Source: Dehalococcoidia bacterium
GTDB lineage: Bacteria > Chloroflexota > Dehalococcoidia > Bin125
NCBI GenBank assembly: GCA_965261225.1
Contig: OZ253456.1
Coordinates: 264,431 to 328,430, forward strand
Length of the DNA: 64,000 nucleotides
Direction of reading: 5' to 3'
In this document: positions 27,411-54,854 of the stretch, in pieces
Layout: each line of letters starts with the position of its first letter
How positions within the stretch are numbered: position 1 is the first letter of the stretch
The notes under the pieces: model-generated
The model's database searches: none
What the model was told of the DNA's origin: nothing
Seen by the model: only the letters and a program-made list of their open reading frames with translations
Made by a program: the position numbers and the translations under genes

Positions 27411-27720
27411 CGCATGTCGACATCGAATTGATGCTCGCCGGCGCGGGCGGTGATCAGCGCTCCGTTCGGATCACCCGACTTGAGGCCGATCACATTGCGC
27501 GCGCGGGCAGACGCCGCTTCAATCAGCTGGCTTCCTCCTGAACCGCTCGCAGCGCCGTCACTGGTGAGCAGGATTGCGACGCGCAGCTGCCGCAGCCGAC
27601 GGATGTGCCTCAGGCCGCGCAGTGCGGCCAGCGCCACAGCGATTCCACCCTTGGTCTCAGCGGCGCCGGCGCCGTAGATGCGGCGGTCGTCGGCCAGGCG
27701 CTCGGCGCCAAAGTAGCGAA
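27390..27720 (-). pseudogene. Internal fragment of an M20-family metallopeptidase fused in-frame to the 3' end of ddl.
   Basis: ..RIYGAGAAETKGGIAVALAALRGL..LRVAILLTSDGAASGSGGS.. matches the M20 GxADmKGG and DEExG region; the N-terminal His/Asp ligand region is absent and the frame decays after ..FDVDMRC. Confidence 0.45.
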
Positions 27721-28693
27721 TCGCCGCCACATCCAGCATGCGGTTGACCATCGCGTCATATGAGTAACCGGCCGTTTGTGCCGAGTGCGCGTAGGTTCCG
27801 GTCAGACCGAGTGAGTCCATCGAGTTGATTTCGAGGATGTACGGTTTGAGGTCCGCGTCCAGGCGTATGTCGACTCGGGCGAAGTCGTATAGCTCCAGAC
27901 TGCGAAACGCCCGCTTCGCCAGCTCTTGCAAGTCGGCGGTCTGTTCATCGGTCAGCGGCGCCGGACAGAGCTTGCCGCGCGGAGTCCGCAGCTTGTTCGA
28001 GTCGGTTTGAATCGCGTTTGGGTCCCCGTCGAGGTCGATCTCGACGATCGGCAGTACCTCGGGATTGCCGTTGCCGAGCAGGCCGATGGCCAGTTCACGC
28101 CCGGCAATGAACTGTTCAACCAGCACATGCTGGCCAAACTCGTTGATGATCGTGGCGACGGCCTCATGCAGGTCGTCCTGGTTCTGAACGGTCCGGATGC
28201 CGTAGGAGACTGCCTCCTTTTTTGGTTTGACGATCAGCGGATGCTCGCGGCTGCACTCCAGGTCCTCGAACCGGTCGTCTGGGGATGCGAAGTTTCAGAA
28301 CTTCGCCGTCGGCAGCCCGGCGGCCTGGAACATGATCTTGGCGATCACTTTATCCAGCGCCATGCCGTGAGCCTGTGGCCCGGAGCCGACGTAGGGGACG
28401 CCGAGCATTTCAAGCATCGCCGGCATGTGCGTGTATCGCGACACGCCCTGGATGCCGTAGGCCATGTTGAAGACCATGCCTGGTCGCTCGCCGGCGATCA
28501 CGCGCGGCATGAAGTCCTGCAACTGCTCAACCACGTGCATGTTGCCGTCGATGATGCGCACAGTGTGTCCGCCCGAGTCGAGCGCACGAGCGACGCGCTC
28601 AACCGTGCGAGGGTTGTAGCGCTCGCGATTCTGCGGTCCGAAGACGTTGATCACTCCGCTGGCATCACGATTGTGGACTACTGCTACGCGCAT
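27715..28693 (-). pseudogene. ddl: D-alanine--D-alanine ligase interrupted by an in-frame TGA (28293-28295).
   Basis: N-terminal ORF 28295..28693 (MRVAVVHNRDASGV..AGLPTAKF*); the same frame continues NFASPDDRFEDLE..HPLIVKPKKEAVSYGIR..LVEQFIAGRELAIGLLG..LKPYILEINSMDSLG..GYSYDAMVNRMLDVAA. Confidence 0.7.
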
Positions 28694-28837
28694 CGGTAGG
28701 CGCTCCCAAGATCGCTCGTAGCATGATTGGTTGACTCACGCCGGAGCAAGTGGATAAGACTCCAAGTACCATCCACTTGCCCACAAGTGACCACAGCTGC
28801 TGGCTACAGGCCGTAACTGCGTTGGCGACACGGCGCC

Positions 28838-31780: not shown

Positions 31781-32593
31781 ACGTCCAGTTCCCCTCTGTG
31801 TTGCAGCCCAGAGCGCGTAGCCGACTCCACAACCCATCGCCGTGGCAATGATCGTCAGCAACAGTTCATCCCCGGAAAGGAACACAATCAGAGGAATCAC
31901 CACGCCGAACAGGGCGCCGGCCAGCATCCAAGTGGATCGGAGGGACAAATCGAAATGCAATCGCAAGATTTTGTTTCCCTTCTACAGGTAAGACGGATCA
32001 GCGGATGGAAAGGTAACGCGCCGACCCCAAGGTTGGTCAGGATGCGTCGGCTGACTGTGGCTCAATGCGCACTGCAGCAGTGCAACCTCCGGTCAGCTCG
32101 ATGTGCCCCGAAGCGACGACCGCATCTGGATTGTCGCGCTACCGAGTGTTCCCGCAGCGCGGAGAGTCGATGTTGTGGCGGCGTCAGGGGTTTCGGCAAC
32201 GGAAGATGATCCTGCTGCCCAAGGGTACGCGTTGATTGGTCCGGTCGTGCAGTTCGGCTTGACCGACTCATCGTCTCAGGTACGCGGGCCAGTCGCAACA
32301 ACTGCTCTGCTTCTGGGGGCTGACTTCCGTCTCGCAATCGGGAGGGCTTCACCGATACGGAGTAGAATCAGGCCCTGGCGCCCCCAGAATCTCTGCGTTT
32401 GACTACGCGACAAACACGCTGGCGCGAAGTCGAGCGACGCGATGCACTACGTGCTCAACCGGCTCCTGACGCAGATGGCGCCGGTGTTGAGCCTGGCCTC
32501 GATCCTTGTGACGCTCACCGCCTACCTCGGAGGCTTCGACACTGCGCACATCCGCCGTTGACCAGACCTCTGGGGCCAGCCTCAAGTGCCGCC

Positions 32594-34306
32594 ATGCCCA
32601 CGCTCGAATTCAGAGGCAAACAGCACATCTACGCCCACCACCTCACCGTGCCTTACAGACCATTGGTCCTCGACCCCGCGAAGTCCCACGGCGACAATGC
32701 TGGCGAACCCGACGACAACCTGATCATCCACGGCGACAACCTCGAGGCGCTTAAGGCCCTGCTTCCTCGCTACGCCGGCAAAGTCAACTGCATCTATATC
32801 GACCCGCCTTACAACACCGGCAACGAGGGCTGGACCTACAACGACAACGTCAACAGCCCGCTGATGCGAGAATGGCTTGCAAAGAACAACCCGGTCGATG
32901 GCGAAGACCTCGAACGTCACGACAAGTGGCTCTGCATGATGTGGCCGCGCTTGCAGCTATTGCTGGAACTGTTGGCCGACGATGGCATCATCTTTGTGTC
33001 AATCGACGACAATGAGCAACATCATCTCCGAATGCTAATGGATGAAATCTTCGGCGAAACCAATTTTCTGAACTCGTTCACTTGGGTGAACAATCTCAAA
33101 GGCCGGCAGTTAACTGGCCAAGGTGCCGCACGCACCCACGAAACGATACTCGCCTACGGAAAAGACATACGAGAACTTAGCGCACCCTTCCAGATAGACA
33201 TTAGTCTTGCGAAGGCAATCATGCCTGATGCATATCGCATGGGAACATATGAAAAGTATCAGGACGAAATAGGTCCATATGTAATAAAGAACCAATTGCA
33301 CAACACAAACTCTAAGGTTAACGAGGAGACTCGACCAGCGTTAGTTTTCAATATTCACTATGCACCGGAATTAAATTCAGTTCGCTTCACGGACGTTGAC
33401 TCTGATTTGCATATCTCAGGTTTCACCCGAATCCCACCCAAAGCCTCCAACGACGGCGTTCACAAGTTTCACGCTTGGCGGTGGAGCAGGCAGAAGATCG
33501 ATGCTGAGTTGCACAATCTACATTTTGAACGGTATGGTGAAACATTCCGGATTCACACGAAAATTCGAGTATTCGACGAAACGAGTCTCAAGGACCTAAT
33601 TACGAATGTCAGCAACTCCAATTCGGAACTTAAGTCGTTGTCTCTTGAGTTTCCGTTTCCAAAGCCCGCAGACTTAGTTAAAGTCCTAATCCAATCCGTC
33701 AGGCACGCAACAGCGATCTTCTTAGATTCCTTCGCCGGAAGCGGAACCACCGCCCACGCCGCACTGGCACTCAATAAGCAAGACGGCGGCAGCCGCAGAT
33801 TCATCCTCGTCGAATGCGAAGACTATGCCGACACGATCACCGCCGAGCGCGTCCGCCGCGTGATCAACGGCGTGCCCGAAGCGAAAGGTGAGGATCTCCG
33901 CGAGGGGCTCGGCGGCTCCTTCACCTATTGCACCCTGGGTGAGCCGATCGAGGCCGAACGGATGCTGACCGGTGAGACACTCCCCAACTACCACGCTCTG
34001 GCCGCGCACCTGCTCTATACCGCCAAAGGAATCACCGCATCCAGGGCGCTTCAACAGCCCACCGACGGTGATCCGTTCTACAGCGATCCTGCCACGGACA
34101 CCGACTACTATCTGCTTTATCAGGCCGATCCCGATTGGCTGCGTGGGAACGACGCGATGCTGTCCGACCAACAGGCAAGCGACATCGCCCATCGCGGGCG
34201 GGCCGCCGTCGTATTCGCAGCCGGCAAGTACATGGGTCAGGGCGATCTCACTCGCCACAACATCACCTTCTGCCAGTTGCCCTACGATCTGCATCGCAGC
34301 GGCTGA
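32594..34306 (+). CDS. mod: Type III restriction-modification DNA methyltransferase (Mod, N6-adenine beta class); the central TRD has markedly low GC.
   Basis: DPPYN motif IV (IYIDPPYNTGNEGW) precedes motif I (IFLDSFAGSGTTAHAA); 570 aa; the segment ~33000-33700 is AT-rich compared with the flanks. Confidence 0.85.
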   Translation: MPTLEFRGKQHIYAHHLTVPYRPLVLDPAKSHGDNAGEPDDNLIIHGDNLEALKALLPRYAGKVNCIYIDPPYNTGNEGWTYNDNVNSPLMREWLAKNNPVDGEDLERHDKWLCMMWPRLQLLLELLADDGIIFVSIDDNEQHHLRMLMDEIFGETNFLNSFTWVNNLKGRQLTGQGAARTHETILAYGKDIRELSAPFQIDISLAKAIMPDAYRMGTYEKYQDEIGPYVIKNQLHNTNSKVNEETRPALVFNIHYAPELNSVRFTDVDSDLHISGFTRIPPKASNDGVHKFHAWRWSRQKIDAELHNLHFERYGETFRIHTKIRVFDETSLKDLITNVSNSNSELKSLSLEFPFPKPADLVKVLIQSVRHATAIFLDSFAGSGTTAHAALALNKQDGGSRRFILVECEDYADTITAERVRRVINGVPEAKGEDLREGLGGSFTYCTLGEPIEAERMLTGETLPNYHALAAHLLYTAKGITASRALQQPTDGDPFYSDPATDTDYYLLYQADPDWLRGNDAMLSDQQASDIAHRGRAAVVFAAGKYMGQGDLTRHNITFCQLPYDLHRSG

Positions 34307-34320
34307 GCGGAAGCGCGATC

Positions 34321-36882
34321 ATGGAGCTCAAGGAATACCAATCGCAAGCGCTTGATGCGTTCTCGCGCTGGTTGGACGAGCTGCGCCAGGCGCGAGCAGC
34401 CGCAGAAGCCTCCGAGCAAGTGCTTCAGGCGCTGCCGCCGGAAGCCGTCGCGGCGGCCCGAGACTACCCGCGCACGACCTGGAACAGGCTGCGCGGCGCC
34501 GGCCAGCTCCCGTCGTCGGCCGGCGAATATGTCCCCCGCACGGATGAAGCGGAACGCCCCATCCCGCACTTTTGCTTCAAGGTGCCGACCGGCGGCGGCA
34601 AAACGCTGCTGGGCGCGGCGGCCTTGGAGCGGCTCAGCCAGCCCACCGGTCTCGTCCTCTGGTTCGTGCCGACCAGGGCAATCTATGCGCAAACGAAGGC
34701 CGCCTTGTGGAACCGCGAGCATCCGTACCGCCAGATGCTGGAACGCGCTAGCGGCGGACGGGTCAAACTGCTCGAAAAGGACGACACGCTCACCCGCGAC
34801 GACATCGCCCACTATCTCTGCGTGATGCTGATCTCGTTGCAAGGCGCCAATCGCAAGAACAACAAGGAATTTCTACGGATGTTCCGGAGTTCAGGCCGCT
34901 ATCCGTCCTTCTTCCCGCCCGACGACGATCTCTGGGCGCACACAAACCTGCTGACCAAGCATCCCGACTTGTATCAGATTGACGGCGGCGGCATGGCTGC
35001 CCAGAGTCTCGCCAACGTGTTCAAGCTCACGCGTCCGGCCGTGGTGCTTGACGAAGCGCACAAGGCGTACGGGACCGCAAAGGCTGCCGGCGACGAGTTT
35101 GTGCAATCGATCAACCGCTACAACCCGAGTCTGGTGATCGAATTGTCCGCGACGCCGAACCGCCGCGCCAGCAACGTCCTGGTCGATATCGACGGCCCGG
35201 CGCTCAAGCGCGAAGAGATGATCAAGCTGCCGATCCAGGTGCGAACCACCAAGGACACTGACTGGAAACATACGCTGGCGCTCGCCGCCGACGAACTCGC
35301 TCAACTGGAACACGCCGCCGATAACTTCGCTGAGAACAGCGGCCGATACATCAGACCCATCGCCGTTGTCCGGGTTGAACGCACAGGTAAAGATCAGCGG
35401 AATACCGACCACATCCACGCCGAAGATGCACGCGGCCATTTGCGGACGCTCGGCGTCCCCGCCGACCAGATCGCGGTCAAATCAGCCGAAGTGGATGAGA
35501 TCACCGGCGTCGACCTGATGTCGCCCTACTCGCCCATCCGCTGGATCATCACCAAGGCGGCGCTGATGGAGGGATGGGATTGTTCCTTTGCCTATGTGCT
35601 GGTCGTACTTGACAATACCCAGTCGAAGCGTGCGATCACCCAGCTCGTCGGACGCGTCATGCGCCAACCCGAGGCGCGGCGAACGGAAGTCGAGGCGCTT
35701 GATCAGTGCTACGTCTACTGCACCGAGACAACCGTTGGCGAAGCCATGTCCCACGTAAAGGACGGTCTGGAGCGCGAGGGTCTGGGCGACCTGCTTGACG
35801 ACGTACACGGCGAATCTACCCAACTGAGAATTCAAGAGTTTCAGCGGCGACCAGAGTTCGCCGGTGCGAAGATCTTCCTGCCTAAGGTATTGCACCGTGA
35901 CGCAGACGGTTGGAGCGATCTCGACTATCAGCGTCACATCTTGCCCCACATCGATTGGGACGACATTCGCATCGCCGACGTACAAAGCTCGCTTCCTCGC
36001 CGGCCATCGATCGAGTTCGGCACAATCGATCTGGACGAGCGCGGCGTCTTCGCTTCTGGATGGGGCGAAGCGGAACTGCCGGATGCCGAGCCGCTGCGGG
36101 TGTCTTGGTACGCCCGGCGTCTCGCCGACTTGGTTCCCAACCCTTGGCAGGCCGCCCGCATCGCCTCGGACATGATCGACGACCTGCGAGCAGCTGATCA
36201 GACTGACAAACAGATATACCGCCAACGTGCAACGCTGGTCGAATGGCTTCGAGCACAGGTGCGCCGCCAGATCGAGACGCAATCGGAGCGTGTGTTCCGG
36301 GGAAAACTAGGCGCTGGCGACATCCGCTTCTCGCTGGATGCTAAGTTGCCCAATCACCGGATAACGGCCGAACCGTTCAAGCGGCTGTTGCCCGCCAACT
36401 TCCACGAGTTTCAGCCGAGCCTGGGCAGGCAACTCCGGCTGTCCTTGTTCACACCGGTTATCGAAGAAGAGCTCGATTCCGAACTCGAAAAGCGGTTCGC
36501 CAAATACCTTGACGAGCGGAAGGCGCTGACCTGGTGGCACCGTGTTGGCGTGCGCCAAAGCCGCGAATACTATCTGCGCGGCTGGAAACCCGAACGGATT
36601 TGGCCCGACTTCATCGCCATGGCGGGGGAAACGGCCGGACGGCCGCATCTGCTCGTATTCGAGACCAAAGGCGACCATCTGGCGCAGACGGAAGATACGC
36701 AGTACAAGGAACATGTGCTGCGAACTCTCGAGGCGGCATTCAATCCGGGTAACGCGGTCAACGAGGATGGCGGACCGTACGGCGCGGTCAAGGTTCGCAA
36801 TGGTCCGATGCGCGGCACGTTCCAGTTGGTCTTCGAGCGAGAGTCGTTCGATGCGGTTGAGCGCGCCCTGGGACTCATCTGA
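34321..36882 (+). CDS. res: Type III restriction endonuclease Res subunit (SF2 helicase plus C-terminal nuclease).
   Basis: Walker A ..KVPTGGGKTLLGAAA.., DEAH box ..VVLDEAHKAYG.., motif VI region ..LVGRVMRQ..; 853 aa; follows mod by 14 bp. Confidence 0.85.
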   Translation: MELKEYQSQALDAFSRWLDELRQARAAAEASEQVLQALPPEAVAAARDYPRTTWNRLRGAGQLPSSAGEYVPRTDEAERPIPHFCFKVPTGGGKTLLGAAALERLSQPTGLVLWFVPTRAIYAQTKAALWNREHPYRQMLERASGGRVKLLEKDDTLTRDDIAHYLCVMLISLQGANRKNNKEFLRMFRSSGRYPSFFPPDDDLWAHTNLLTKHPDLYQIDGGGMAAQSLANVFKLTRPAVVLDEAHKAYGTAKAAGDEFVQSINRYNPSLVIELSATPNRRASNVLVDIDGPALKREEMIKLPIQVRTTKDTDWKHTLALAADELAQLEHAADNFAENSGRYIRPIAVVRVERTGKDQRNTDHIHAEDARGHLRTLGVPADQIAVKSAEVDEITGVDLMSPYSPIRWIITKAALMEGWDCSFAYVLVVLDNTQSKRAITQLVGRVMRQPEARRTEVEALDQCYVYCTETTVGEAMSHVKDGLEREGLGDLLDDVHGESTQLRIQEFQRRPEFAGAKIFLPKVLHRDADGWSDLDYQRHILPHIDWDDIRIADVQSSLPRRPSIEFGTIDLDERGVFASGWGEAELPDAEPLRVSWYARRLADLVPNPWQAARIASDMIDDLRAADQTDKQIYRQRATLVEWLRAQVRRQIETQSERVFRGKLGAGDIRFSLDAKLPNHRITAEPFKRLLPANFHEFQPSLGRQLRLSLFTPVIEEELDSELEKRFAKYLDERKALTWWHRVGVRQSREYYLRGWKPERIWPDFIAMAGETAGRPHLLVFETKGDHLAQTEDTQYKEHVLRTLEAAFNPGNAVNEDGGPYGAVKVRNGPMRGTFQLVFERESFDAVERALGLI

Positions 36883-38861: not shown

Positions 38862-39551
38862 ATGGCGACATTCGTATTGATCCACGGCGCGTATCAGGGC
38901 GGATGGATCTGGTCGCCCGTCGCGACGCAGTTGCGCGACGCCGGCCACCGCGTGTACGCGCCGTCGCTTGACGGTTGCGCCGAGCGTTCGGCGCAGGCGC
39001 GGCCCGGGATCACGACGGAGACGCAGGCCGAAGAAATCGCGGAGCTGCTGCGCTACGAGGATCTCACTGAGGTTGTGTTGGTCGGTACCTCGTCGGGCGG
39101 CATGGTGCTGGCCAAGGTCGCCGAACTCGCCCGCGAGCGGATTCAGCGCCTGGTCTTCGCCGACGCGCTCGCCCTGCTCGACGGAGAGACCATCCGCGAC
39201 ATCGTGACCTCATCTGCCGCAATCACCAACGATGTCGTGACTGGCCCCTCGCCTGACGGGATGCTCAACACGCTGCAGGCAAGCATGGAGCCGGAGCTGG
39301 CCGCGTGGGCGGCGGAGCGTTTCGGGCTGCACCCAGTCGCGGCGTTCAACCAACCGGTCGTGCTCGAATCGTTCTGGGATCAATCGTGGGACGCCTCCGT
39401 GATCTGGTGCCGCCAGGCGCCGAATCCCGGCGAGGCACACCAACGCCGTTGCGCAGAGTCGCTCGGCGCGCGCTGGCACGAGCTCGACACAGGGCACTAC
39501 CCGATGCTGAGCACACCCGACGAGCTGACCCGCCTGATGCTGGAGGGCTAG
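38862..39551 (+). CDS. Alpha/beta hydrolase (esterase, MES/PNAE-like).
   Basis: ATFVLIHGAYQGGWIW..VVLVGTSSGGMVLA (GxSxG)..; ~229 aa. Confidence 0.75.
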   Translation: MATFVLIHGAYQGGWIWSPVATQLRDAGHRVYAPSLDGCAERSAQARPGITTETQAEEIAELLRYEDLTEVVLVGTSSGGMVLAKVAELARERIQRLVFADALALLDGETIRDIVTSSAAITNDVVTGPSPDGMLNTLQASMEPELAAWAAERFGLHPVAAFNQPVVLESFWDQSWDASVIWCRQAPNPGEAHQRRCAESLGARWHELDTGHYPMLSTPDELTRLMLEG

Positions 39552-39778
39552 TGGTTCCAGCCATTGGTCGCCCTGGCGTCCCGCCCATCAACGCCTCCGT
39601 ATTGCGTTCCAACGGAGGGTAGTACGGCGGAATTCATGGTCGGATCCGGTAAGCAGGTTCCAGCCATCAAACGCGCGCAGTATCAGCACGGGAACGTGCT
39701 CGGCTTCGAGCCGCTGCAGCAAACCCAGTACGTGCGCTCGGCATTCCAAACGCGGATGGAGACGGTCGTTCGCTTGGA

Positions 39779-40867
39779 TTAGCCAAACGTATTCGCGCGA
39801 CTGCGGAAGCCGTCGATGCCCAGACCGTCTCGCCACTTCTCCGACTCGCGGCGTGAGAATGAATCCAGGGGAATGCCGCAACCGTCGGCGATACGTACCA
39901 TTCGCTGGAAGTTTGCGACGGTCGCTGCGCAATCCACGACTGCGTCCGGCCCCATGGCGGCGTTAACTGCCTCCCGAGCCTCGGCAAGGTTCGGGGTGTG
40001 TCTCACTGCTGCATCCGAGTAGCGAAGTAATACTTCGCCATGTTCGACGCCGCTATCGATATCGTTTCGCACCGTACCGTTAAGGTTGAGGGTGTCGTTG
40101 CTTTCGCTGCTCCGACCGAGCAGCATCACATGTGAGATCGTTCAATAGAAACACTCATTCAAGGCCGACACTCTCGCCGCCACCAACTCGCGCTGCGGAC
40201 GCGTCAACACGCGGAACGACTCTTGTTCGCTGCTGATCTCCACCCAACTGAGGTAGTGCGCATCGAATAGATCAGCCAACCAGCGCACGCTGTCCGGATG
40301 CAGGCTCATCGCTGCGCGAACATTCGCGGCGTGCTCGTCTCCGCCATAGATATCCGACTCGCGCTCACCCAGGTCGTCGGGCCGAATGGTCGGTGGCCAA
40401 CTTCCATGTTGTTTCGCGCCCGACGGTCGGATCCAAGTGGGCTCGCCAACGATCGGCTCCGGCAACGGCTCACACGGCAACGAGAGCGCACGATGAAACT
40501 CGTCAACCGACCAGACATGGACTACGACGCCAAGCAACTCGATGTAATGAGCGTCCGAAATCCCGTCGGCGGCTGTGACCTCCTCGTACCACTCCTTGTT
40601 CACGTTGGGCAAATCGGCGATGAGTTTGTGCACCGCGAAGACGGCCGCCTCGGGCAGTTGCGCCGGTCCCGCTCCCGGATCGGGGAGTCCGTCCACCAAC
40701 GCGGACGCCCGACGAGTCTCGGCGGCGATCGACACGCGCTCAGGGCCAGTCCACCAGTCTCCCGGCGAGGCCAGCATCTCCCAACTGCGACGGTGCGCTT
40801 CGGCCATGCGGTCCAGGACGGGCCAGGCGGTATCCACGTATCCAAAGGCTCTGGCGGTCGTGGTCAT
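39779..40867 (-). CDS. AhpD/CMD-family (carboxymuconolactone decarboxylase-like peroxidase-related) protein, copy 1. Candidate selenoprotein with in-frame TGA at 40142-40144 (C-F-Y-U-T-I-S-H).
   Basis: ORFs 40142..40867 and 39779..40129 share one frame, separated only by TGA. ..ELVAARVSALNECFY[TGA]TISHV.. fits the AhpD SxxNxCxYCxxxH motif with U at the second Cys. Hairpin gctgctc-cgacc-gagcagc at 40106-40124 lies 17 nt downstream of the UGA in the mRNA. Confidence 0.6.
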
Positions 40868-40876
40868 GTGTGGCTC

Positions 40877-41965
40877 CTAGCTGGGGGTGTTGGCGGCGGA
40901 TGCATAGGCGTAGACGCCGAGCTCGTCGCGGAAATCGGCGCTGGCTTCAACAGTTGGAGCGTCCAGCGGGATGCCGCAGCCGTCGGCGATTCGCACCATG
41001 CGTTGATAGTTAGCGATCACGCCGACGGCGTCAACTACCGCTGCGGCGCCCAACTCCGCGCGGAGCGCTTCGCGACGCTCCGGCAGGTCGGCATACCGTC
41101 CGACCACGGCATCGGCGAAGCGCAGCAGCGTCGTCGCATTGGGGACGCCACTCTCGACCTCGTTATCGACCGCCCCGGCCAGGTTCAATCGATTGTTTCC
41201 GGTGCTACTCCGACGGAGCGCAGCTACGTGGGAGACCGTTCAATAGAAGCACTCGTTCAGAGCCGATGTGCGAGCAGCCAACAGCTCGAACTGCGGCCGC
41301 GAGAGCGCCCGCGTCGCGGGATCGAAGTGCATGGTCTGCTCCCACGACATGTACTGCGCAGCGCGCAATTCGTTGAGCCAACGCACATTCTCGGGGACCA
41401 GGCTGAGGGCGCTGATCACGTTGGCGGTTCGCGCGGGTCCGCCGTAGATATCGGAGTCTTCCGGATCAAGGTCGGGCGGCATCACGATCGGCGCCCAGGA
41501 TCCGTGATCGGCCGCTCCAGCGGGGCGTCGACGGGCCGGTTCGCCGGCTTGCGGTTCGGGCAACGGCTCAAGCGGGAGTGAGAGCGCGCGATGAATCTCG
41601 TCGATCGCCCATACATGCACGACCACGGCCAGAAGCTCGATGTAATGCGCATCGGACATGCCCGGCGCGGAGACGATCTCTTCGTACCATTCGCGGCTGA
41701 GGTTGGGGAGGTCGCCGATTAGCCTCTGCACAGCGTGGACGGCCGCCTCGGGCAGATCGGCCGGTCCTGGTCCGGGGTCCGGCAGACCGTCGATCATCGC
41801 CCCTGCGCGGCGGGTCTCGGCGGCGATGCTGATCCGTTCGGCGCCGCTCCACCATTCACCGGCGGCAGCCAGACGCTCCCAGCTGCGGCGATGACCGTCG
41901 GCGGTGCGCACAGGTATCGGCCAGATTATGTCCGCATATGCGAACGGGACAGCGGTTGTGGTCAT
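40877..41965 (-). CDS. AhpD/CMD-family protein, copy 2 (tandem paralog). Candidate selenoprotein with in-frame TGA at 41240-41242 (C-F-Y-U-T-V-S-H).
   Basis: ORFs 41240..42175 and 40877..41188 share one frame. ..SALNECFY[TGA]TVSHVAALRRSSTGNNRLNLAGAVDNE.. continues into ..ANYQRMVRIADGCGIPLD, homologous to copy 1 downstream of its TGA. An imperfect hairpin lies ~15 nt after the UGA. Confidence 0.6.
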
Positions 41966-42700
41966 CGCAAGTTCCTCGCCAGCGTCGAGTTCAATCGACC
42001 GACCTTCTGCGACCTTAACGGATTTCGGACTCTCGATTCGGTCAGGATCGAGCGATCCGCAGATGGCTCGTCTCGACTGCTGGGAATACTCTGAACAACT
42101 CCGATCCCCGCTTCCCCCCCTCTGCGGGGGAAGCTGCCGAAGGCTGAAGGGGGGTCCTCGCTCAGCCTGCGACACCAGTTGTTCAGAGGATTCCTGGGCC
42201 TATTGTCAGAGCTGACTCGCCCGACTTATGAGAGGTCCGGAGGTAGGTTTCGGGGCACAAACACTCTCTCGCGAGAGCCGCCACCCTGACAACTGACGGT
42301 CGACTCGCTTGCATCGTCGGAAGAGGACTCGATACTTGCACAGCATGAGGAGCGAGCGCTGTGAAGTGGGGCAACAGGCTCCTACATGAGTACGACGACC
42401 ACTACTCGGACGTGGCCGTGTGACCGGCGCGGTCGATGATCGACGATGGCTAGTCCAAACGTGGACCAGGCGCTGTACAGGCGCTGGAATAACTCACGAA
42501 TCAGAGGCGAGCGCCGACGAGGCCAAGTGATCGACGTTCTACCGCAAGCGGTCCGCGAGAACTGGTGTTGTACCACCCCGCCACGGAGATCGGCCATGAG
42601 CGCGTGCCACAGCCACGCTCGCTGGGAACGACCCAATCCCAACAGCAGCGCCCTGGTCGATCCATGAGCCCGAGGTCGGCTCGCTATAGGCGGATGCTCG

Positions 42701-44752
42701 CTAGCGGGAAACCTGCGGTGGTTCCTTGGCTTCCTCGAAGCCCGAAAGCGGACGGCGATCAGCCGGGTATCCGGAACCAGAGCGAAGACGAATGCCGCAG
42801 TCGGCCAGGTGGTGGTCCGACCAGCCATAGTCGAGCAGTCTCGCGTCGGGACTGAACCACGGTTGGACGATGCTCAGTTGAACCGGGTTAGCCAGATTGT
42901 TAATCCAGCCGGTGCTCGCTCCACTGAGCAGACGTCGCTGGATCTCAGCGATGAGCTCTGTCAGTACGTCGAAATTCAGCTCCCGATGCAGTTGCTCAAG
43001 CAGCCGATCAAGTTCCGCGTCCGGGAATGCGCCCCAGCTCTCCGCACCCTGTGAATGGAGGCTGCGCGACCATGCGCCGATCGGCAGAGGCGACACGGGC
43101 AGCTCGCCCCAAGCCACGTTGACGAAGCGTTCGCCGTTGCTCAGGCGGCTGATCGCTGCTGCACCGTCGAGCTGCTCGAACTCGACGCTCAGCCCCGTCA
43201 CGCGTTCGATCATCCCTGCGATCAGCCCCCCCAAGTCCGCGAAATACGAGCTGACCTCCGTAGAGACCACCAGCTTGAGCGGGCCGATCTGTTCGACGCC
43301 ACCTGCGGCCTCGATCAACTCGGCCACAATCGGCGACACTGCTTCTGGCGAGGGCAGATAACCGGCGTATTGGTGCAATTCTGTATCTGGTAGGGCGAAA
43401 TCGGTGAAGTGCCACGGCACTGGCCCCGAGGGACGCAAGACGAAGGGTTCTGTCAGCGATTCCGCAATCTGCACACGGTCGATTGACCAGTTGATTGCCA
43501 TCGCAACGCGCGGATCGCTCAACGCTCCGGCAGGATCAGGATCGCGTGGCGTGAGCAATTGCAACGGCCGTCCTCCAGGGATTTCATAGATATTGTGCTC
43601 GTGAAACTGGTCGGACAATGAGGCAATCTGCCGGTTGCTTAAGGGCCAATCGGCGCGGTCGATATCGCCGGCGGCGTACGCCTCCAGCAAGTCATTGGCG
43701 GATCCGCTGACAAACGTGATTGCGTTCATCCGTGCCAACCGTTGTTCGAGCCAATACTGGTTCGTTTCCTTCGCTCTCCACCAATCTTCCGAGCGAACAA
43801 CCGAAGTCCGATGTTCGCCATGCTCCACAGCGCGGTATGGTCCCGTTCCGTCAGTCCAAAGATCGCCTGCAGTGCCCCTGGGCCAACGGATGTCCGCTTG
43901 TGCGATCGCTTCCGAGCTGGCAATCCACCCGAATGGGCCTGCGACCACGTCGCGTTGCTGGTGATAGACAGACGAGTCGCTGATCAACGCAAAAGTGTGA
44001 CCTCCGTCGGCATGCGGTTCAAGCTCCTGGAACCGCGTGCCGTTCCAGTCCGCAGCGCGGCGGAGATGCGTGTCGGGAACCCGTTCCCGTGCGTTGGCCC
44101 AGGCCAGCCGCTCGATGCTCAGGCGCACATCATCGGACGTCACCTGACGCCCGTCGTCGGCCGGATCGGCGGTGAACCGGGCGCGCGGATCAATAGGGAA
44201 GATCGAGGTTTGTGCGTCCGGGGTTTCGGGCCATTAGCACAGATCGGGCTCGACCAAGGTTGAGTTCGTCCTGGTCGGTCGCAACAGGCGGTTGTACGTC
44301 AACGAATGGACGCGCTGGACGAAGGTTGACATGGAACGATGCGGGTCCCACGTGTCGACCTCGTTCGAATAGGCGAATTGATGCGTAACGCGAGGAGGAC
44401 GCTGTGATTCGGGCTGGGCTGATTCGGGCTGTGGTAGTTCGGGCTGGGGTTGCGCGCGCGGAGGACGCGGCCTTGCTGGATCGTCCGCTGCCGCTGATGC
44501 ATCTAACTGTTGCGGCTCTGAGCGCAAAGAAGGTTCTTGCAGAGGTCCCGGCGAACGCGGCTCGGGGGGCGGTTCCTGACTACAGCCAAGAAGCGCCAGC
44601 GCCGTAGCGCCCACGCCGGCCAGAGCGCTAACGCGCAGCAGTTGGCGGCGGCTGAAGCGTTCGCCGAGCGTTGGCATGAGGCCAGCGTAGCCCGATTCGG
44701 CGCACCCGGAAGAGCATCCGAATAACGGCAGGCCGGGGCGGACGCTGGACAT
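42701..44752 (-). pseudogene. ABC transporter substrate-binding lipoprotein (family 5, peptide/nickel type) interrupted by an in-frame TAA (44234-44236).
   Basis: Signal peptide/lipobox (MPTLGERFSRRQLLRVSALAGVGATALALLGC) and the start of the family-5 fold in ORF 44234..44752. The same frame continues after TAA (..WPETPDAQTSIFPIDPRARFTADPADDGRQVTSDDVRLSIERL..) into ORF 42701..44143. Confidence 0.7.
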
Positions 44753-45354: not shown

Positions 45355-46037
45355 GGGTCGCACGGCTGCGCGATCGGCGTTGAAGGCTCCTTGTCCTGTT
45401 GGGGCTGGAACGCAGCGGGTCAAGCAGCCGCCCCAACCGGCGAATTCATGCAAGTGAGCGCCGGTTCACGACACAGCTGCGCGATTGATGTTGAGGGCGC
45501 CCTGACTTGTTGGGACGCAGATCCGCTGTACGGTACGCCGCTGGCACAAGGGTCGGTCACTTCAACAGTGTCGGCACGGAGTCCAGGCTCAGAGCAACAT
45601 GACAGCGAAGGTGGCAGCGAAGGTGACAGCGATGCGAGGAGCGGGGTCCGGGTCGTGCAAGTCGAAGTTGGTACGTCCTTCGCTTGCGCGTTGACGGAGG
45701 ACGGACAAGCTATCTGTGGTGGTTACAACTATTACCATCAGGCAGACGCGCCTCAGCTCACATTCACCCAGCTCAGCACAGGCAGCTATCACGCTTGTGG
45801 ACTTCGCGAAGATCAATCGGCGTCTTGTTGGGGCAAAAACGATCACGGCCAAACGAACACGCCCCCGGTTCGCTTCATTCAGGTCAGCGCTGGCGCCAAT
45901 CATTCCTGCGCCTTGCGCGACGATGGCGAGCTTGTCTGCTGGGGCAGGAACGATAAAGGTCAAATCGATTCCCCGTCCTGGACATTCGAGCGACTTGACG
46001 CAGGTTCAAACCACAATTGCGCTCAGTGATGTTCGCA

Positions 46038-48118: not shown

Positions 48119-50593
48119 CTACTGTCCTCCGGAGGTGCTGCAGTAGGGGAGACCTAGCTCGTCGAGATCAGTGCGCCTGACGTTCTGCAACTCCACGGGG
48201 ATGCAGCCGGTCAGTTGGTTGCCGGCAAGTTGCAGGTGGTTCAGGTTCGTCAGATTGCCCAGGGTGGTGGGTATCCCACCCGTAAAGCTGTTGTCATCGA
48301 GCCAGAGCAGGGTCAACCCTGACAGGTTGCCCAGCCACGACGGGATCGCACCCGTGAAGCCGTTATCCCTCAACAGCAACAAGTTGAGCCCCGTGAGATT
48401 CGCCAGCTCCACTGGTAGCTCACCCACCAGCCGGTTGGTGCTCAGTGTCAGCGTCGTCAGCCTGGTGAGGTTGCCCAGTTCGGGCGGAATCTGACCGGTC
48501 AACTGATTCGGGCCCAGTTCGAGTTTCGTGAGCCTGGTCAGGCCAGCTAACTGGGACGGAATGGACCCGGTGAGCTCGTTGAAACCGAGTTCCAGCGCCG
48601 TCAACTTGGCGAGCTGGCCCAACTCTGGCGGAACGGGTCCGCTCAGTTCGTTCCCGCTGAGATCCAACTCTGTCAGCTCGGTCAAGTTACCGAGCTGAGA
48701 GGGGATGTCGCCGGTTAAGTCGTTGTTGTCGAGGTCGAGCCGCCTCAACTTGGCCAGGTTGCCCAGCTCAGCAGGAATCTCACCGCTGAGCTCATTCCAG
48801 TCCAACTCCAGTTCCCGGAGCTCGGACAGACGCCCCAACTCGGACGGGATCTCCCCGCGCATGTCGCCGTTGATGACAAGCGTCTCAAGCTTGGCCAAAT
48901 TGCCCAGTTGCGCGGGTATCTCGCCGGCGAAATCACTCAGCTCCAGGCTCTTGACCCGTTGCGGCGATCCCCCCAGTCCGATACCTGTCCAGCCGGCCAT
49001 CGGCGTGGTTGGAGACCAGTTCAACGTTCCCGTTCCGGCTATGGCATCGCGCGCCGCGAGCAGGCTCTCGCAGTCGGACACGAGCCCGTCGTTGGTGGAC
49101 GCATTCGGTACCGCTGTTCCAGTCGCGCATGAGACCGTTGCCTCGCAGAAGGGAGGAAGCGGAGGCCGTGGGTCGTCAAACCGGTATGTCGCGTATGAGC
49201 TATCCAGGGAACGGAAGCTGTCCGGTATACAGCCGGTCAGCGGGTTGCCGTGCAGGTAGTAGGAGTGCAGTGCGGACAGGCTTGCCAGCTCGGAGGGCAC
49301 GTCCCCGCTGAGAACGTTGTCTCTGAGATCAAGTGTCCCCAACCGGGACAAGTTGCCCAGCGCAGCAGGTATCGGCCCGCTCAAGTCGTTGTTGCCGAGA
49401 TTGAGACTCTTGAGTTGGGTGAGCCCACCGAGCCCAGCCGGAATCATCCCGCTCAGGCTATTGCTGGTGAGATTGAGAACCTCCAGCATCGCCAGGCTCC
49501 CCAGCTCTACGGGTATCCCGCCGCGCAGCATGTTGTGGTTGAGCCAGAGCGACCGGAGGCGCGTCAGCCTCCCCAACTCAGGCGGAATCACCCCGCTGAG
49601 GCTGTTGCCGTGAACCCGCAACGATTGCAGGTTCGTGAGCATGCCCAACTCTGCGGGTATCTCACCATCGAGCTGGTGCCAGGACACGTCGAGGATTTGC
49701 AGGTTCCCGAGCTTGCCCAACTCCCGCGGGATCGTTCCCGTCAGGCCCAGGCTGCGCTCATGTTGACCCGTCTGGTCGGAGAGGTCGAGGGTTTGCAGGT
49801 TCGACAGATTCCCCAGGGCCGGAGGGATCACTCCTGAAATGTCGTTGTTCTCGCTCAGGTCCAACACCCGCAGACTCGCGAGTGTGCTCACAGCGGCGGG
49901 AATCGCGCCCTTCAATTCATTGCTGCTCAGTTCGATATGCGTGACACAGCCGTTGACATTGGTCGTGATCCCATGCCACCTGTCGATGGCCTCGTTGGAT
50001 TGCCAGTTCGAGTCCCGACGCCAGTTCTCACCGTCTAGCGACTGATACAACGTCGTCAGCACAGCTCTGTCTCGGCTGACGCAGGCATCCGAATCCGATG
50101 TCCCTTCCGCGGGCACGGCCGACTCAGGCTGGGGCGACGCGGTCTCGGGTTCCGTGACCTCTCCCTCCGACAGCGTGATCAACGAGCTGCGCAGCCAGCG
50201 GTTGGCCCGTGCGTTCACGGGGAAATAACGAGCGCGCGGCAGAATGCGCTCTCCAGCGTCGGGGATGAAGCCAAATTCGACCCGCCGGTCCTCAAGCCGC
50301 ATTGCGGTGACCTGGCCCAGATTCTCGCCGTCCCGCTGCACCGCAGATGACAACTGCCAGCGCCCAACTGACGAGGTGGGGAAGAAGCGGCTGCGGGGCA
50401 GGATTCGCGCTTCGCCTTCGGGTTGGAATCCAAACTCAATCCGCCCGTCGTCGAGCAGTCGAGCGACGATCTTACCTTCGACCGCGGCAGCGGTCATGGC
50501 GCCATCCTGTGCCACCCCGCTCGACATCAGCGCGACTACACCGACCGCGACGAGGCTAGCCAGCAAAGCAACCAGACTGATGGGACGATACAT
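48119..50593 (-). CDS. Secreted leucine-rich repeat protein with ~25 plant-type LRRs (LxxLxxLxLxxNxLSGxIPxxLGxLxxL) and two N-terminal ~50-aa repeats.
   Basis: Signal peptide MYRPISLVALLASLVAVGVVALMSSGVAQ; long regular 24-residue LRR array; Cys-rich cap regions. Confidence 0.8.
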   Translation of the reverse strand: MYRPISLVALLASLVAVGVVALMSSGVAQDGAMTAAAVEGKIVARLLDDGRIEFGFQPEGEARILPRSRFFPTSSVGRWQLSSAVQRDGENLGQVTAMRLEDRRVEFGFIPDAGERILPRARYFPVNARANRWLRSSLITLSEGEVTEPETASPQPESAVPAEGTSDSDACVSRDRAVLTTLYQSLDGENWRRDSNWQSNEAIDRWHGITTNVNGCVTHIELSSNELKGAIPAAVSTLASLRVLDLSENNDISGVIPPALGNLSNLQTLDLSDQTGQHERSLGLTGTIPRELGKLGNLQILDVSWHQLDGEIPAELGMLTNLQSLRVHGNSLSGVIPPELGRLTRLRSLWLNHNMLRGGIPVELGSLAMLEVLNLTSNSLSGMIPAGLGGLTQLKSLNLGNNDLSGPIPAALGNLSRLGTLDLRDNVLSGDVPSELASLSALHSYYLHGNPLTGCIPDSFRSLDSSYATYRFDDPRPPLPPFCEATVSCATGTAVPNASTNDGLVSDCESLLAARDAIAGTGTLNWSPTTPMAGWTGIGLGGSPQRVKSLELSDFAGEIPAQLGNLAKLETLVINGDMRGEIPSELGRLSELRELELDWNELSGEIPAELGNLAKLRRLDLDNNDLTGDIPSQLGNLTELTELDLSGNELSGPVPPELGQLAKLTALELGFNELTGSIPSQLAGLTRLTKLELGPNQLTGQIPPELGNLTRLTTLTLSTNRLVGELPVELANLTGLNLLLLRDNGFTGAIPSWLGNLSGLTLLWLDDNSFTGGIPTTLGNLTNLNHLQLAGNQLTGCIPVELQNVRRTDLDELGLPYCSTSGGQ

Positions 50594-50735
50594 TGTGCGA
50601 CCCTTCTGCACTGAGTGGCTGACAGCCGTCCGCGAAGATGGTACTTCAACTGGTAGACACCGGTTTGGAGCCTATTCACATCGTTTGCAGAGCGTCACAT
50701 ATAAACGCAACATAGATCGAGCTATCAGAGGCCGT

Positions 50736-51448: not shown

Positions 51449-52625
51449 CTAGTGTCCTGAGTCGGGAATACGGTTGAGATATCCGGCGAGGTTGTCGAAG
51501 ATCTGGTCGGCGGTCTTGTGCCAGACGAAGGGGCGCGGGTGTTCGTTCCAGCCGGCGACCCAGCGTTCGATGTCGCGGGTCAGGTCGGCCACGCTGCGGT
51601 GCGCGCCGCGCCTGAGCCACTTGGTGGTCAGTTCGGCGAACCAGCGTTCGACCAGGTTCATCCAGGAGCTGTAGGTGGGGGTGAAGTGAAAGCTGAAGCG
51701 GGGATGACGCTGGAGCCAGCGCTGGATCTCGGCGGTCCGGTGGGTGGCCACGTTGTCCAAGACGACATGCACGGCGAGTTCGTCGGGTACCTGCTCGTCA
51801 ATCAGGTCGAGGAAGCGCCGGAACTCGCGGGCCCGGTGTCGCGGGGTCAGGTCGGCGATCACGTGGCCCGAGGCGATATCCAGCGCCGCGTAGAGGTTGG
51901 TGGCGCCATGACGGACGTAACCGTGAGTCTGACGGCGAGGCACGCCGGGCAGCATCGGCCGCGTCGCAGCGGTGCGGTCAAGCGCCCGGATCTGGGTTTT
52001 CTCGTCCACACACAGGACGACCGCCGCGTCGGGTGGGTTGAGATAGAGGCCGGCCACGTCGCGCACCTTGTCGATGAACTGCGGGTCGGGCGACAGCTTG
52101 AACTGCTCGACGAGGTGCGGCTTGAGGCCGAAGGCGCGCCAGATCCTGGAGACCGCCGTCTGCGACATGCCCATCTCGGCGGCCATCGAACGGGTTGACC
52201 AGTGAGTCGCGTGGCGCGGTTGCTGTTCCAGCGTCTTGACGATCACCGCTTCCACCTGCTCGTCGCCAATCGTGCGGGGCGCGCCGGGACGCGGCTCATC
52301 GCTCAGCCCATCCAGCCGCCGCTGGGCGAAGCGTCGCCGCCACTTGCCGGCCGTGACCGGATGGCAACCGAGCGCCGCGCCGATCTCCGTGTTCGTTTGC
52401 CCGGCCGCCGCTCCGAGCACGATCCGGCTGCGCAGCGCCAGGGCCTGCGCCGTGCTCGGTCGGCGCGCCCAGCGCTCCAGCGTCTCTCGCTCCTCCGCAC
52501 TCAGCACGATCGTCACCGTCGGGCGGCCCAGTTGGGTACGCATGACACTCCACCGAGAACCCCGGATGACCAAACCAACTCCACCATACCCGCTTGTTCA
52601 TCGCATTAGCGACTCAGGACACTAG
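51449..52625 (-). mobile_element. IS630-family insertion sequence (~1.18 kb) with an intact 374-aa transposase (CDS 51449..52573) and ~16-bp terminal inverted repeats CTAGTGTCCTGAGTCG flanked by TA.
   Basis: HTH plus DDE transposase (..VLCVDEKTQIRAL..VVLDNVATH..PTYSSWMNLVERWF..). TIRs ctagtgtcctgagtcg (51449-51464) and cgactcaggacactag (52610-52625), read directly. Confidence 0.85.
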
Positions 52626-54099: not shown

Positions 54100-54854
54100 T
54101 AGGCGGCGCGCATCGGACCTATCGATTCGAAGCGGCAAGAGTCCCGCTCGATGTAGGCCAACGAGCGCTCAACTATCTCCGAGCCGAGCAGCGGTCGGAG
54201 GCATAGTGCCACCTCTTCGATGCCAAGACCGTTCCAGACGTAGTAGAGGTCGTAGGCGTCTTGCTCCACGCCACGGTTGGCGAAGGCGAGCGCCTTGAGC
54301 ACGGTAAGGGCGCCGGGTCCGCAGACGTGGAACTTCCTCGTCGCCCGTTCGCCGCGCAAGGTGCGGCCGCTCAGTTCGATCGTGCGCCTGTCCTTGAACG
54401 CGAGCGCGAGCCCGGGGATGACGAAAGCGCCGAAGTCGCGATCGAAACGCATCATGCGTTCTTCCGGGCCCGCCTCTGGTGATGGATTGATCAAGAAGTC
54501 AATCATCACGACAGGCGCGTCAACGGTATGCCAGCGTTGCAACATTGGCTGATCCTCATTGTTCAGGTCCGGTTCGAATCCGGCCTCGACCAGCCGCGTA
54601 CGAAGCGCCTGATAGCGTCGGTCGTCGAAGAGCGTCACATCGAGACCCAGATCGACATCCATCGTGCCCGCGTGGGCGCCGAGATCGAACGGCGGCGGAT
54701 CCTGCTCAACCAGCAGCGCCGGAGCGAGGCCGCCGACGATCACGATCTCATCGAGTAGGTCACCCAGCCTGGTCGCAAGTTCGAGACATGCCGAACGCGC
54801 CTGTTCGATAAATTCGATGTCGTAGCCGTCCGCCGTGCGGGGCTTTTCATCCAT
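54099..54854 (-). CDS. abiEii: AbiEii-family nucleotidyltransferase toxin (type IV TA / abortive infection).
   Basis: ..IVIVGGLAPALL..GTMDVDLGL.. GG/DxD nucleotidyltransferase motif; overlaps the upstream abiEi by 8 nt. Confidence 0.65.
   Translation of the reverse strand: MDEKPRTADGYDIEFIEQARSACLELATRLGDLLDEIVIVGGLAPALLVEQDPPPFDLGAHAGTMDVDLGLDVTLFDDRRYQALRTRLVEAGFEPDLNNEDQPMLQRWHTVDAPVVMIDFLINPSPEAGPEERMMRFDRDFGAFVIPGLALAFKDRRTIELSGRTLRGERATRKFHVCGPGALTVLKALAFANRGVEQDAYDLYYVWNGLGIEEVALCLRPLLGSEIVERSLAYIERDSCRFESIGPMRAA

Follow-up and report, generated by a model that had tools for sequence, protein, structure and literature searches.

A 64,000-nt stretch of Dehalococcoidia DNA (hereafter, the window) carries two adjacent AhpD/CMD-like genes, each interrupted by an in-frame TGA where a redox cysteine is expected. 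This locus raises the question of whether the codon terminates two truncated proteins or is decoded as selenocysteine (Sec). An initial annotation, made from the sequence alone, had favored Sec and described the genes as probable unannotated selenoproteins with downstream SECIS-like hairpins.

Layout and family of the gene pair

Both genes were located on the reverse strand, with the following features:

40877-41965, reverse strand: copy 2, the upstream gene, predicted AhpD-related selenoprotein of 362 codons by translation, stop TAG
41240-41242, reverse strand: in-frame TGA of copy 2, predicted Sec242; all 116 family copies have TGA at this codon
41228-41287, reverse strand: catalytic motif of copy 2, E227-x11-C239-F-Y-U242-T-V-S-H246
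40868-40876, reverse strand: 9-nt spacer from the TAG of copy 2 to the ATG of copy 1, with a GGAG ribosome-binding site
39779-40867, reverse strand: copy 1, the downstream gene, predicted AhpD-related selenoprotein of 362 codons by translation, stop TAA
40142-40144, reverse strand: in-frame TGA of copy 1, predicted Sec242; likewise TGA in 116 of 116 family copies
40130-40189, reverse strand: catalytic motif of copy 1, E227-x11-C239-F-Y-U242-T-I-S-H246

The proposed tandem of AhpD/CMD-like genes with UGA at the redox Cys was confirmed: each gene was interrupted in frame by one TGA only, codon 242 in both copies, within the local sequences already read as NECFY-TGA-TISHV (copy 1) and NECFY-TGA-TVSHV (copy 2). 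The two copies shared 59% identity over their full length, and their TGA-to-TGA spacing of 1098 nt was the same in loci L001-L003. Mechanical ORF calling divided copy 1 into 241 aa and 116 aa, and copy 2 into 311 aa and 103 aa. The split at the TGA agreed with the initial annotation, but its upstream limit of 42175 did not hold, as the 311-aa ORF is extended upstream to a GTG. In homologs, and in the gene calls of a relative, the start corresponds to the ATG at 41965 (MTTT...), so this codon was taken as the start of copy 2 and the true span of the pair as 39779-41965; a GAGGA ribosome-binding site lies ~9 nt before this ATG. The GGAG ribosome-binding site in the spacer suggests that the two copies are probably co-transcribed, and a promoter and terminator scan of 39400-42800 found neither element.

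Both proteins belong to the NCBIfam equivalog family NF041238 (AhpD_rel_CFYUT; alkylhydroperoxidase-related (seleno)protein), with scores of 345.9 bits for copy 1 (model positions 3-357 of 357) and 347.1 bits for copy 2 (positions 5-356), about twice the curated cutoff of 175 bits. Scores above cutoff were also obtained with Pfam PF02627 (CMD; 25.8 and 30.9 bits, cutoff 23) and with TIGR00778 (AhpD core domain; 30.5 and 30.1 bits, cutoff 27.8). The scores with TIGR01926 (peroxidase-related enzyme) were 32.2 and 39.6 bits, below the cutoff of 81.8; judged by sequence, both proteins are relatives of this subfamily and not members of it. The C-F-Y-U-T motif with a TGA-encoded U was present in both copies, and the AhpD/CMD signature E-x11-C-x2-C-x3-H was matched with U242 replacing the second Cys. 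Among 113 full-length copies, Q225, E227, C239, F240, U242, T243 and H246 were invariant.

In the Sargasso Sea selenoproteome published in 2005 by Zhang, Fomenko and Gladyshev (PMC1088965), NF041238 appears as "hypothetical protein 1". The family is thus already known, along with its Sec codon and SECIS; it was first reported in that year and is curated by NCBI under a name taken from the CFYUT motif, and the pair is "unannotated" only insofar as public gene calls nearly always split such genes at the TGA. The window proteins show no essential difference from the described family, sharing the CFYUT motif, the length of ~360 aa, and CxxU followed by a downstream bacterial SECIS. What sets the window apart is the presence of two diverged tandem paralogs, of which copy 2 lies on a branch specific to its lineage and has a weaker hairpin with a bulge. 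Copy 2 was 88-93% identical to its counterparts in L001-L003 and 62-64% identical to all other copies, while copy 1 was orthologous to a widespread "B-type" copy (T[IV]SHV[MT]LLGR) and 80-83% identical to copies in many Dehalococcoidia. One database protein (P0121) was 100% identical to the C-terminal ORF of copy 1 over the aligned part.

Compared with the TIGR01926/COG2128 selenoproteins ("AhpD-like 1", CxxU; abundant in marine metagenomes), the window proteins share the AhpD-core fold, Sec as the second residue of CxxU and a SECIS just downstream. However, those selenoproteins are single-domain proteins of ~180-190 aa, whereas the window proteins add an N-terminal half of ~180 aa. The solved AhpD-family proteins, namely M. 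tuberculosis AhpD (PDB 1gu9), 6k40 ("Alkyl hydroperoxide reductase AhpD") and the "peroxidase-related" 2oyo, 2pfx and 2prr, are also single-domain, carry Cys where the window proteins have Sec, and resemble them only marginally (E 3e-5).

Conservation of the TGA, the downstream sequence and the hairpin

To follow the codon across the family, we compared 116 copies, comprising those in the window and those in 80 fetched related loci (78 out of 451 relatives in a genome scan and two from the contigs of a close relative). The results showed that the site was TGA in all 116 copies, which span at least six phyla, and TAA, TAG or a Cys codon in none. Past the TGA, every copy kept the frame open for another 114-170 codons, and translation continues beyond the codon. 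Conservation across the stop, as proposed in the initial annotation, was borne out by purifying selection: dN/dS against close orthologs was 0.05-0.18 after the TGA, similar to the value before it, H246 was invariant although it lies downstream of the stop, and tblastn matches spanned residues 1-360. The proposal that the TGA takes the place of the second Cys in the AhpD/CMD motif also stood, since U aligned with the second Cys of CxxC in PDB 6k40 and 2oyo, and Cys occupied the aligned position in the homologs P0296 (LNECVYCASGH) and P0237 (NECFYCATYS). Such Cys-containing homologs exist but are rare; P0237 is a full-length single chain of 370 aa. Matches to Pfam CMD (residues 218-285), TIGR01926 (204-328) and 6k40 (219-332) all crossed the TGA, so that a product ending there would be without half its domain.

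TGA also served as an ordinary stop, ending 21 of 49 mechanically picked candidate ORFs in the window and 52 of the 116 family genes, which indicates a standard genetic code. Elsewhere in the window, a Ddl-like gene has a TGA at 28295-28297 where solved Ddl structures have a Leu, and this gene looks like a real nonsense pseudogene.

Downstream of each TGA, both hairpins of the initial annotation were recovered:

40105-40125, reverse strand: SECIS-like hairpin of copy 1, U-GCUGCUC-GGUCG-GAGCAGC-G, 8 bp with the closing U.G and a 5-nt loop containing GU
41203-41222, reverse strand: SECIS-like hairpin of copy 2, UGCGCUCC-GUC-GGAGU(A)GCA, stem of 5 bp and 3 bp separated by a bulged A, loop GUC

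In copy 1, the 7-bp stem hairpin (40106-40124) begins 17 nt past the UGA and forms part of the minimum-energy fold; with the closing U.G pair, its 8 bp have a dG of -13.4 kcal/mol. The imperfect hairpin of copy 2 had a dG of -8.2 kcal/mol (-10.1 in the L001/L003 orthologs) and lay outside the minimum-energy fold of its 81-nt context. In E. coli fdhF, the UGA-to-stem spacing is roughly 11 nt; the spacing in this family is longer, with the stem beginning 16-19 nt past the UGA, and a SECIS role is predicted from sequence. The hairpin was kept in orthologs and paralogs of several phyla. Its core 5 bp were paired in 97-100% of 107 sequences, and in 98 of these it appeared in the local minimum-energy fold in the same register as in copy 1. 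The apical loop read [C/G]-G-[U/G]-N-N, with the G at loop position 2 invariant in the 107 sequences.

Examination of the family sequences further revealed frozen synonymous sites in the hairpin. Leu at codon +8 was CTC in 107 of 107 sequences, compared with 35% elsewhere in the same genes, and Ser at codon +11 was AGY in 102 of 102 (40% elsewhere). At codon +9, in the loop, only CGU, GGU or CGG was found, and CGC or GGC never, though these make up 53-58% elsewhere. Pair 22-38 was C-G in 62 sequences and A-U in 7. The covariation score was 0.124 compared with 0.098 for shuffled alignments (0 of 500 reached it), and a control slid by +3 gave 0.129; covariation is modest because the core never varies. 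No consensus structure was predicted by RNAalifold on the 107-sequence alignment, and no match was found in an Rfam scan of the window; the hairpin was assessed by explicit pair counts and per-sequence folds. Bacterial SECIS elements have a small apical loop with a guanosine (PMC1088965), and those of the E. coli fdhF type and of the 2005 Sargasso Sea consensus likewise form a hairpin within the coding sequence right after the UGA, with G in the small loop.

Alternative readings of the TGA and selenium context

Several other explanations of the in-frame TGA were weighed against these data. A nonsense mutation in each paralog, with decaying sequence past the TGA, would agree with gene callers stopping at the codon and with the presence of the pseudogene-like Ddl gene in the same window. 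Pseudogenes would not, however, be expected to hold TGA in 116 of 116 copies of at least six phyla, each followed by 114-170 open codons, nor to show a dN/dS of 0.05-0.18 after the TGA against close orthologs and an unchanged H246; the conservation data already refute this reading, and we assign it practically no probability. Reassignment of TGA to sense throughout the genome, as in a code 4- or 25-like code, is just as negligible, being suggested by nothing beyond the in-frame TGAs themselves and refuted by stop-codon usage: TGA closes the family genes counted above at conserved C-termini as well as the window ORFs, and the Pfam domains of neighboring genes end normally. A third possibility is that the locus holds four separate genes, in which termination-reinitiation yields a 241-aa protein and a ~115-aa protein as a split AhpD domain without selenocysteine. 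Many copies do contain an in-frame GTG or ATG 5-6 codons past the TGA, giving ORFs of 100-125 aa that are called publicly, and in GenBank the two pieces stand side by side, each as a "hypothetical protein" (MXX32342.1, MXX32341.1). Yet a plain stop would drift, as the true ends of the same genes do in using all three stop codons, whereas the internal codon is always TGA. Moreover, the interruption separates the two redox residues of C-x-x-C and aligns with Cys in homologs, T243 and the next codons are conserved although they lie upstream of the supposed restart, and the frozen synonymous sites correspond to a hairpin at SECIS distance rather than to a ribosome-binding site. Given these points and the full-length single-chain Cys form P0237, the split-gene reading was rejected as very unlikely.

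The remaining explanation accepts read-through but not Sec. The UGA would be read as Cys or Trp, through near-cognate suppression or through a Cys-charged tRNA-Sec-like tRNA that depends on SelB, in a lineage whose selenium metabolism has been lost or changed. Cys-charged tRNAs resembling tRNA-Sec are described from some bacteria, which lends this reading some support, as does the result that selA, selB, selD and tRNA-Sec were not found within the 64-kb window, where a tRNA scan also found nothing. A tblastn search of the window and the 80 loci with E. coli SelA, SelB and SelD (approximate query sequences) detected only selD, in two loci of Spirochaetales (L070 and L075) at a distance of 2-5 kb from the family gene; this links the family to selenium and favors Sec. 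Also against this reading, related Dehalococcoidia are listed among the most selenoprotein-rich bacteria: two Dehalococcoidia MAGs have been reported with 46-49 selenoproteins, and entry in the selenoprotein database listing them required at least two Sec-pathway genes. In addition, the SECIS features match ordinary bacterial Sec insertion, and in a Sec-less lineage one would expect TGC or TGT to become fixed, which is the case in 0 of the 116 copies. We therefore regard non-Sec read-through as very unlikely.

Taken together, the locus very likely comprises two tandem, probably co-transcribed NF041238 paralogs, each decoding UGA as Sec. Analysis of neighboring genes revealed no ahpC or other redox partner as a conserved neighbor, and no AhpC partner gene near the window pair; the only recurrent neighbors of the family gene were riboflavin-synthesis genes, in one clade. 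A pattern scan of the loci for further CxxU or UxxC genes returned mostly wrong-frame noise, the DNA being GC-rich.

Predicted chemistry, tandem pairs and annotation

On the Sec reading, SelB with Sec-tRNA(Sec) would bind the hairpin through its small loop with G in second position, and selenocysteine would be put in at codon 242 instead of termination, giving a protein of 362 residues in this organism. We infer an all-helical protein of two AhpD-like halves, forming a Sestrin-like internal pseudo-dimer, in which the N-terminal half would have lost its active site in copies 1 and 2 and the C-terminal half bears the AhpD signature E227-x11-C239-x2-U242-x3-H246. A structure model, covering residues 1-241 only, gave no significant Foldseek match, and profile comparison of the N-terminal with the C-terminal half gave a weak result (probability 10%, E 0.003). 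Sestrin-2 (PDB 5cuf) was matched to this partial model at 14% identity, for which no homology is claimed; it is eukaryotic and has Cys, not Sec. In AhpD of M. tuberculosis, a Glu-His relay activates the second Cys of CxxC, which is the nucleophile. By analogy, Sec242 may act as the attacking selenolate, with Cys239 resolving it to a selenenylsulfide, and the proteins may function as thiol/selenol-dependent (hydro)peroxide or disulfide reductases. No enzymology of the NF041238 family was found in the literature consulted.

The tandem arrangement extends beyond the window. In nearly every Dehalococcoidia locus with enough flanking sequence, an "A-type" gene (TASHVRMLRE) was directly followed by a "B-type" gene, the two TGAs being ~1.1 kb apart; in the lineage of the window, the upstream slot holds a different, fast-diverged paralog. 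Instead of a casual duplication, the pairs could represent a conserved unit of two subunits, which might form an obligate hetero-oligomeric selenoenzyme having a pair of Sec sites and Sestrin-like double AhpD subunits, an idea that we offer tentatively and consider doubtful. No description of a tandem two-subunit unit for the NF041238 family was found in the literature consulted, and the recurrence of tandem pairs across Dehalococcoidia is the one minor new point. The locus opens no new question, as literature going back to 2005 already covers the family together with its Sec codon and SECIS.

The practical value of the finding lies in annotation. With the full-length query, 769 matches were obtained in the protein database, and the best 120 of the 769 all ended at ...NECFY, with 65-67% query coverage. 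A query spanning the junction recovered only N-fragments or C-fragments, and 148 of the 150 best cluster representatives were cut at the UGA. Public calls thus nearly always cut the gene into a 241-aa piece and a ~115-aa orphan, and for both copy 1 and copy 2 the appropriate annotation is one selenoprotein of 362 residues. With this pair, two selenoproteins are added to a Dehalococcoidia lineage whose relatives were found mostly as uncultured metagenome-assembled genomes, and within Dehalococcoidia the family is multi-copy and often arranged in tandem.

A tandem gene pair of a known selenoprotein family

Two tandem AhpD-related genes, copy 2 upstream and copy 1 downstream, lay on the minus strand of the window, with 9 bases between the stop codon of copy 2 and the ATG of copy 1.

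Features of the gene pair (window coordinates)
41965 (ATG) to 40877 (TAG), minus strand: copy 2 gene, 362 codons
41240-41242, minus strand: sole in-frame TGA of copy 2, codon 242; NECFY-TGA-TVSHV
41203-41222, minus strand: copy 2 hairpin, 5 bp, a bulged A and 3 bp, GUC loop; dG -8.2 kcal/mol
40867 (ATG) to 39779 (TAA), minus strand: copy 1 gene, 362 codons
40142-40144, minus strand: sole in-frame TGA of copy 1, codon 242; NECFY-TGA-TISHV
40105-40125, minus strand: copy 1 hairpin, U-GCUGCUC-GGUCG-GAGCAGC-G, in the minimum-energy fold; dG -13.4 kcal/mol

The initial annotation had described two paralogs, each split at a single in-frame TGA, and the ORF pieces were recovered in a mechanical ORF list. 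Its span to 42175 needs one correction, in copy 2: homologs and the gene calls of a close relative start at MTTT, and the 311-aa ORF reaching 42175 is therefore an upstream GTG extension.

With U (Sec) written as C, copy 1 and copy 2 matched the NCBIfam equivalog model NF041238 (cutoff 175 bits) end to end, at 345.9 and 347.1 bits, respectively. Pfam gave a weak CMD domain alone in both proteins (about residues 218-285), and both scored far under the cutoff of TIGR01926. "Hypothetical protein 1" of the 2005 Sargasso Sea selenoproteome was shown with a conserved CXXU motif and a predicted SECIS (PMC1088965). Given the NF041238 match and the 2005 report, this kind of protein is already known and curated, and both genes are members of that selenoprotein family. 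The initial observation and its selenoprotein interpretation, with predicted Sec, were thus right; the genes count as unannotated only insofar as public gene calls nearly always split such genes at the TGA.

Translation across the TGA

A full-length query against 5.8 billion proteins returned 769 matches, the best 120 of which were all 229-268 aa long, covered 65-67% of the query and terminated exactly at ...NECFY. With a junction-spanning query, no match crossed the junction; only N-fragments (33-34% coverage) or C-fragments (100-125 aa) were returned. Adjoining GenBank "hypothetical proteins", such as MXX32342.1 (241 aa) and MXX32341.1 (118 aa), are such pieces, and some 241-aa fragments already bear the name "alkylhydroperoxidase-related (seleno)protein".

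A scan covering one genome per species yielded 451 relatives; in the 78 loci kept, tblastn matches crossed the stop and reached residue 360-362. Across the window and 80 fetched loci (L001-L080), all 116 family copies carried TGA at the codon 242 position (TAA, TAG, TGC or TGT, 0/116), followed by 114-170 open codons. In comparisons with the close L001 and L003 orthologs, dN/dS was 0.05-0.18 after the TGA and 0.13-0.20 before it. The open frame, the tblastn matches and the low dN/dS therefore indicate that the post-TGA sequence is translated, as initially proposed; when orthologs were checked for unconserved sequence past the TGA, every copy stayed open.

These results bear directly on the alternatives. 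A pseudogene is excluded by the invariant TGA, the open codons beyond it and the low dN/dS, and a split gene by the same invariance, the alignment of the TGA with Cys in homologs and the conserved hairpin. TGA also terminates 52 of the family genes themselves (TAG, 50; TAA, 13) and 21 of 49 mechanically picked candidate ORFs in the window; the code is therefore standard and the invariance of TGA specific to codon 242, which excludes a recoded genome. That the UGA is read through as Cys or Trp instead of Sec is very improbable.

The conserved hairpin downstream of the TGA

Both hairpins of the initial annotation, the perfect one of copy 1 and the imperfect one of copy 2, were found. Folding the 81-nt context of the copy 2 hairpin gave a different minimum-energy structure; the equivalent hairpin in the L001 and L003 orthologs had a dG of -10.1 kcal/mol. 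In a gap-free alignment of 107 distinct sequences (48 nt from the TGA onward), the five core pairs (columns 23-27 with 33-37) were paired in 97-100%, confirming that orthologs keep the hairpin. The core stem lay within the local minimum-energy fold in 98/107 sequences (mean dG -12.7 kcal/mol), and the second loop position was an invariant G, a feature named for bacterial SECIS elements (PMC1088965).

Pair 22-38 was C-G in 62 sequences and A-U in 7, and pair 20-40 occurred as five pair types. The covariation score was 0.124 compared to 0.098 for shuffles (0/500 reached 0.124), but is not decisive alone because a control slid by +3 scored 0.129; RNAalifold predicted no structure for this alignment. 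Synonymous-site freezing is the stronger argument. Codon +8 (Leu) was CTC in 107/107 sequences, a codon that makes up 35% of Leu codons at other positions of these genes, and codon +11 (Ser) was AGC/AGU in 102/102, compared to 40% elsewhere. Codon +9 was CGU (62), GGU (31) or CGG (14), never CGC/GGC (53-58% elsewhere), and codon +10 had a third-base G in every sequence. Judged by sequence and predicted folding, the hairpin is an RNA element over coding sequence, with the place and shape of a bacterial SECIS.

Active site, selenium links and genomic setting

An exhaustive HMMER search with the exact C-terminal part against 1.84 billion cluster representatives gave 727 matches. Orphan C-fragments made up 148 of the best 150; the other two were Cys forms, the database proteins P0296 (LNECVYCASGH) and P0237 (370 aa, NECFYCATYS). 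In the nearest PDB sequences, 6k40 ("Alkyl hydroperoxide reductase AhpD") and 2oyo, LNRCVYCAVSH aligned with LNECFYUTISH, so that U falls on the second Cys, where the initial annotation had placed the TGA. Q225, E227, C239, F240, U242, T243 and H246 were invariant in 113 full-length copies. The motif thus reads as the AhpD signature E-x11-C-x2-C-x3-H, with predicted Sec replacing the second Cys. In M. tuberculosis AhpD, a Glu-His relay activates the second Cys, which acts as the nucleophile; by analogy, we infer that Sec at this position would fit AhpD chemistry.

A separate CxxC occurred in an N-terminal-half insertion in 41/113 full-length copies (about a third), from L003-L080 (e.g., P0065, ...RAAGDCELCRERAAS...), at a position aligning with the C-terminal active-site helix. 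It may be a relic or second redox site from internal duplication; copy 1 and copy 2 are without it.

In the 64-kb window, tRNA genes and Rfam matches were absent, and a scan of 40 ORFs turned up none of selA, selB and selD. Two observations lend indirect support to the presence of Sec machinery. First, the closest relatives, of which L003 is 92% identical, are Dehalococcoidia MAGs, and the BSepDB paper, which required at least two Sec-pathway genes per organism for inclusion, credits two MAGs of this class with 49 and 46 selenoproteins. Second, in two Spirochaetales MAG loci the family gene is separated by 2-5 kb from a homolog of selD (selenophosphate synthetase), which shares 35-36% identity with E. 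coli SelD.

selD homologs near family genes
L070:459-1373, minus strand
L075:2894-3889, minus strand

The pair's window neighbours (alpha/beta hydrolase, isocitrate/isopropylmalate dehydrogenase and solute-binding protein genes) also flank it in the close relative L001/L002. The family's only recurrent neighbours, riboflavin-synthesis genes in one clade, were absent from the window. An 18-nt inverted repeat (GGAATACTCTGAACAACT / AGTTGTTCAGAGGATTCC) at 42083-42194, some 120 nt before copy 2 begins, surrounds two inner hairpins; the ~115-nt element, with a folding energy of -65 kcal/mol (z -4.4), had no Rfam match. It recurs upstream of the L003 gene pair (5773-5883), one arm is present elsewhere in L001/L002 (~15.3 kb), and window 7458-7475 gives a third, weak match; the element resembles small mobile palindromes of the MITE/REP kind rather than a regulator of the pair.

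Elsewhere in the window, a D-Ala-D-Ala-ligase-like (ATP-grasp) gene at 27179-28735 (-) has an in-frame TGA at 28295-28297 (AGLPTAKF*NFASPDD). Homology to solved Ddl structures crosses this TGA, which aligns with Leu, not Cys, and past about residue 350 the frame enters unrelated-looking sequence; the probable explanation is a nonsense pseudogene or a sequencing error rather than a selenoprotein. Eukaryote-like repeat proteins are encoded at 12356-18955 (+), 45391-46029 (+) and 48119-50611 (-), namely a 2199-aa subtilase/P-domain/fibronectin/cadherin protein, an RCC1-repeat protein and an 830-aa leucine-rich-repeat protein. The pair is surrounded by defence and mobility genes, at 26583-27410 (-), 32399-36882 (+), 51449-52573 (-) and 54847-55956 (-), which include a type I restriction specificity subunit, a DDE transposase, an AbiEi-like antitoxin regulator, and a DNA methylase and ResIII helicase forming a type III-like restriction-modification system.

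Copy 1 is orthologous to a widespread type, sharing 80-83% identity with copies in many Dehalococcoidia. Copy 2 represents a paralog specific to its lineage: identity is 88-93% with L001-L003 and 62-64% with all others. Tandem pairs occurred in 35/81 sequences (window and 80 loci), nearly all Dehalococcoidia, usually as an A-type copy (TASHVRMLRE) followed by a B-type copy (T[IV]SHV[MT]LLGR). In a Candidatus Binatia MAG, the locus's own tandem NF041238 pair is directly preceded by a third candidate selenoprotein, which is of another AhpD-like type (L059:4656-5930, +; in-frame TGA at 4980, motif HSSCYY-U-TETIG, with 108 open codons upstream of the TGA and 316 downstream); if real, this candidate would make one cluster of three CxxU genes. 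In annotation, each gene of the window pair should stand as one 362-residue selenoprotein, and the recurring tandem pairing in Dehalococcoidia may merit attention.
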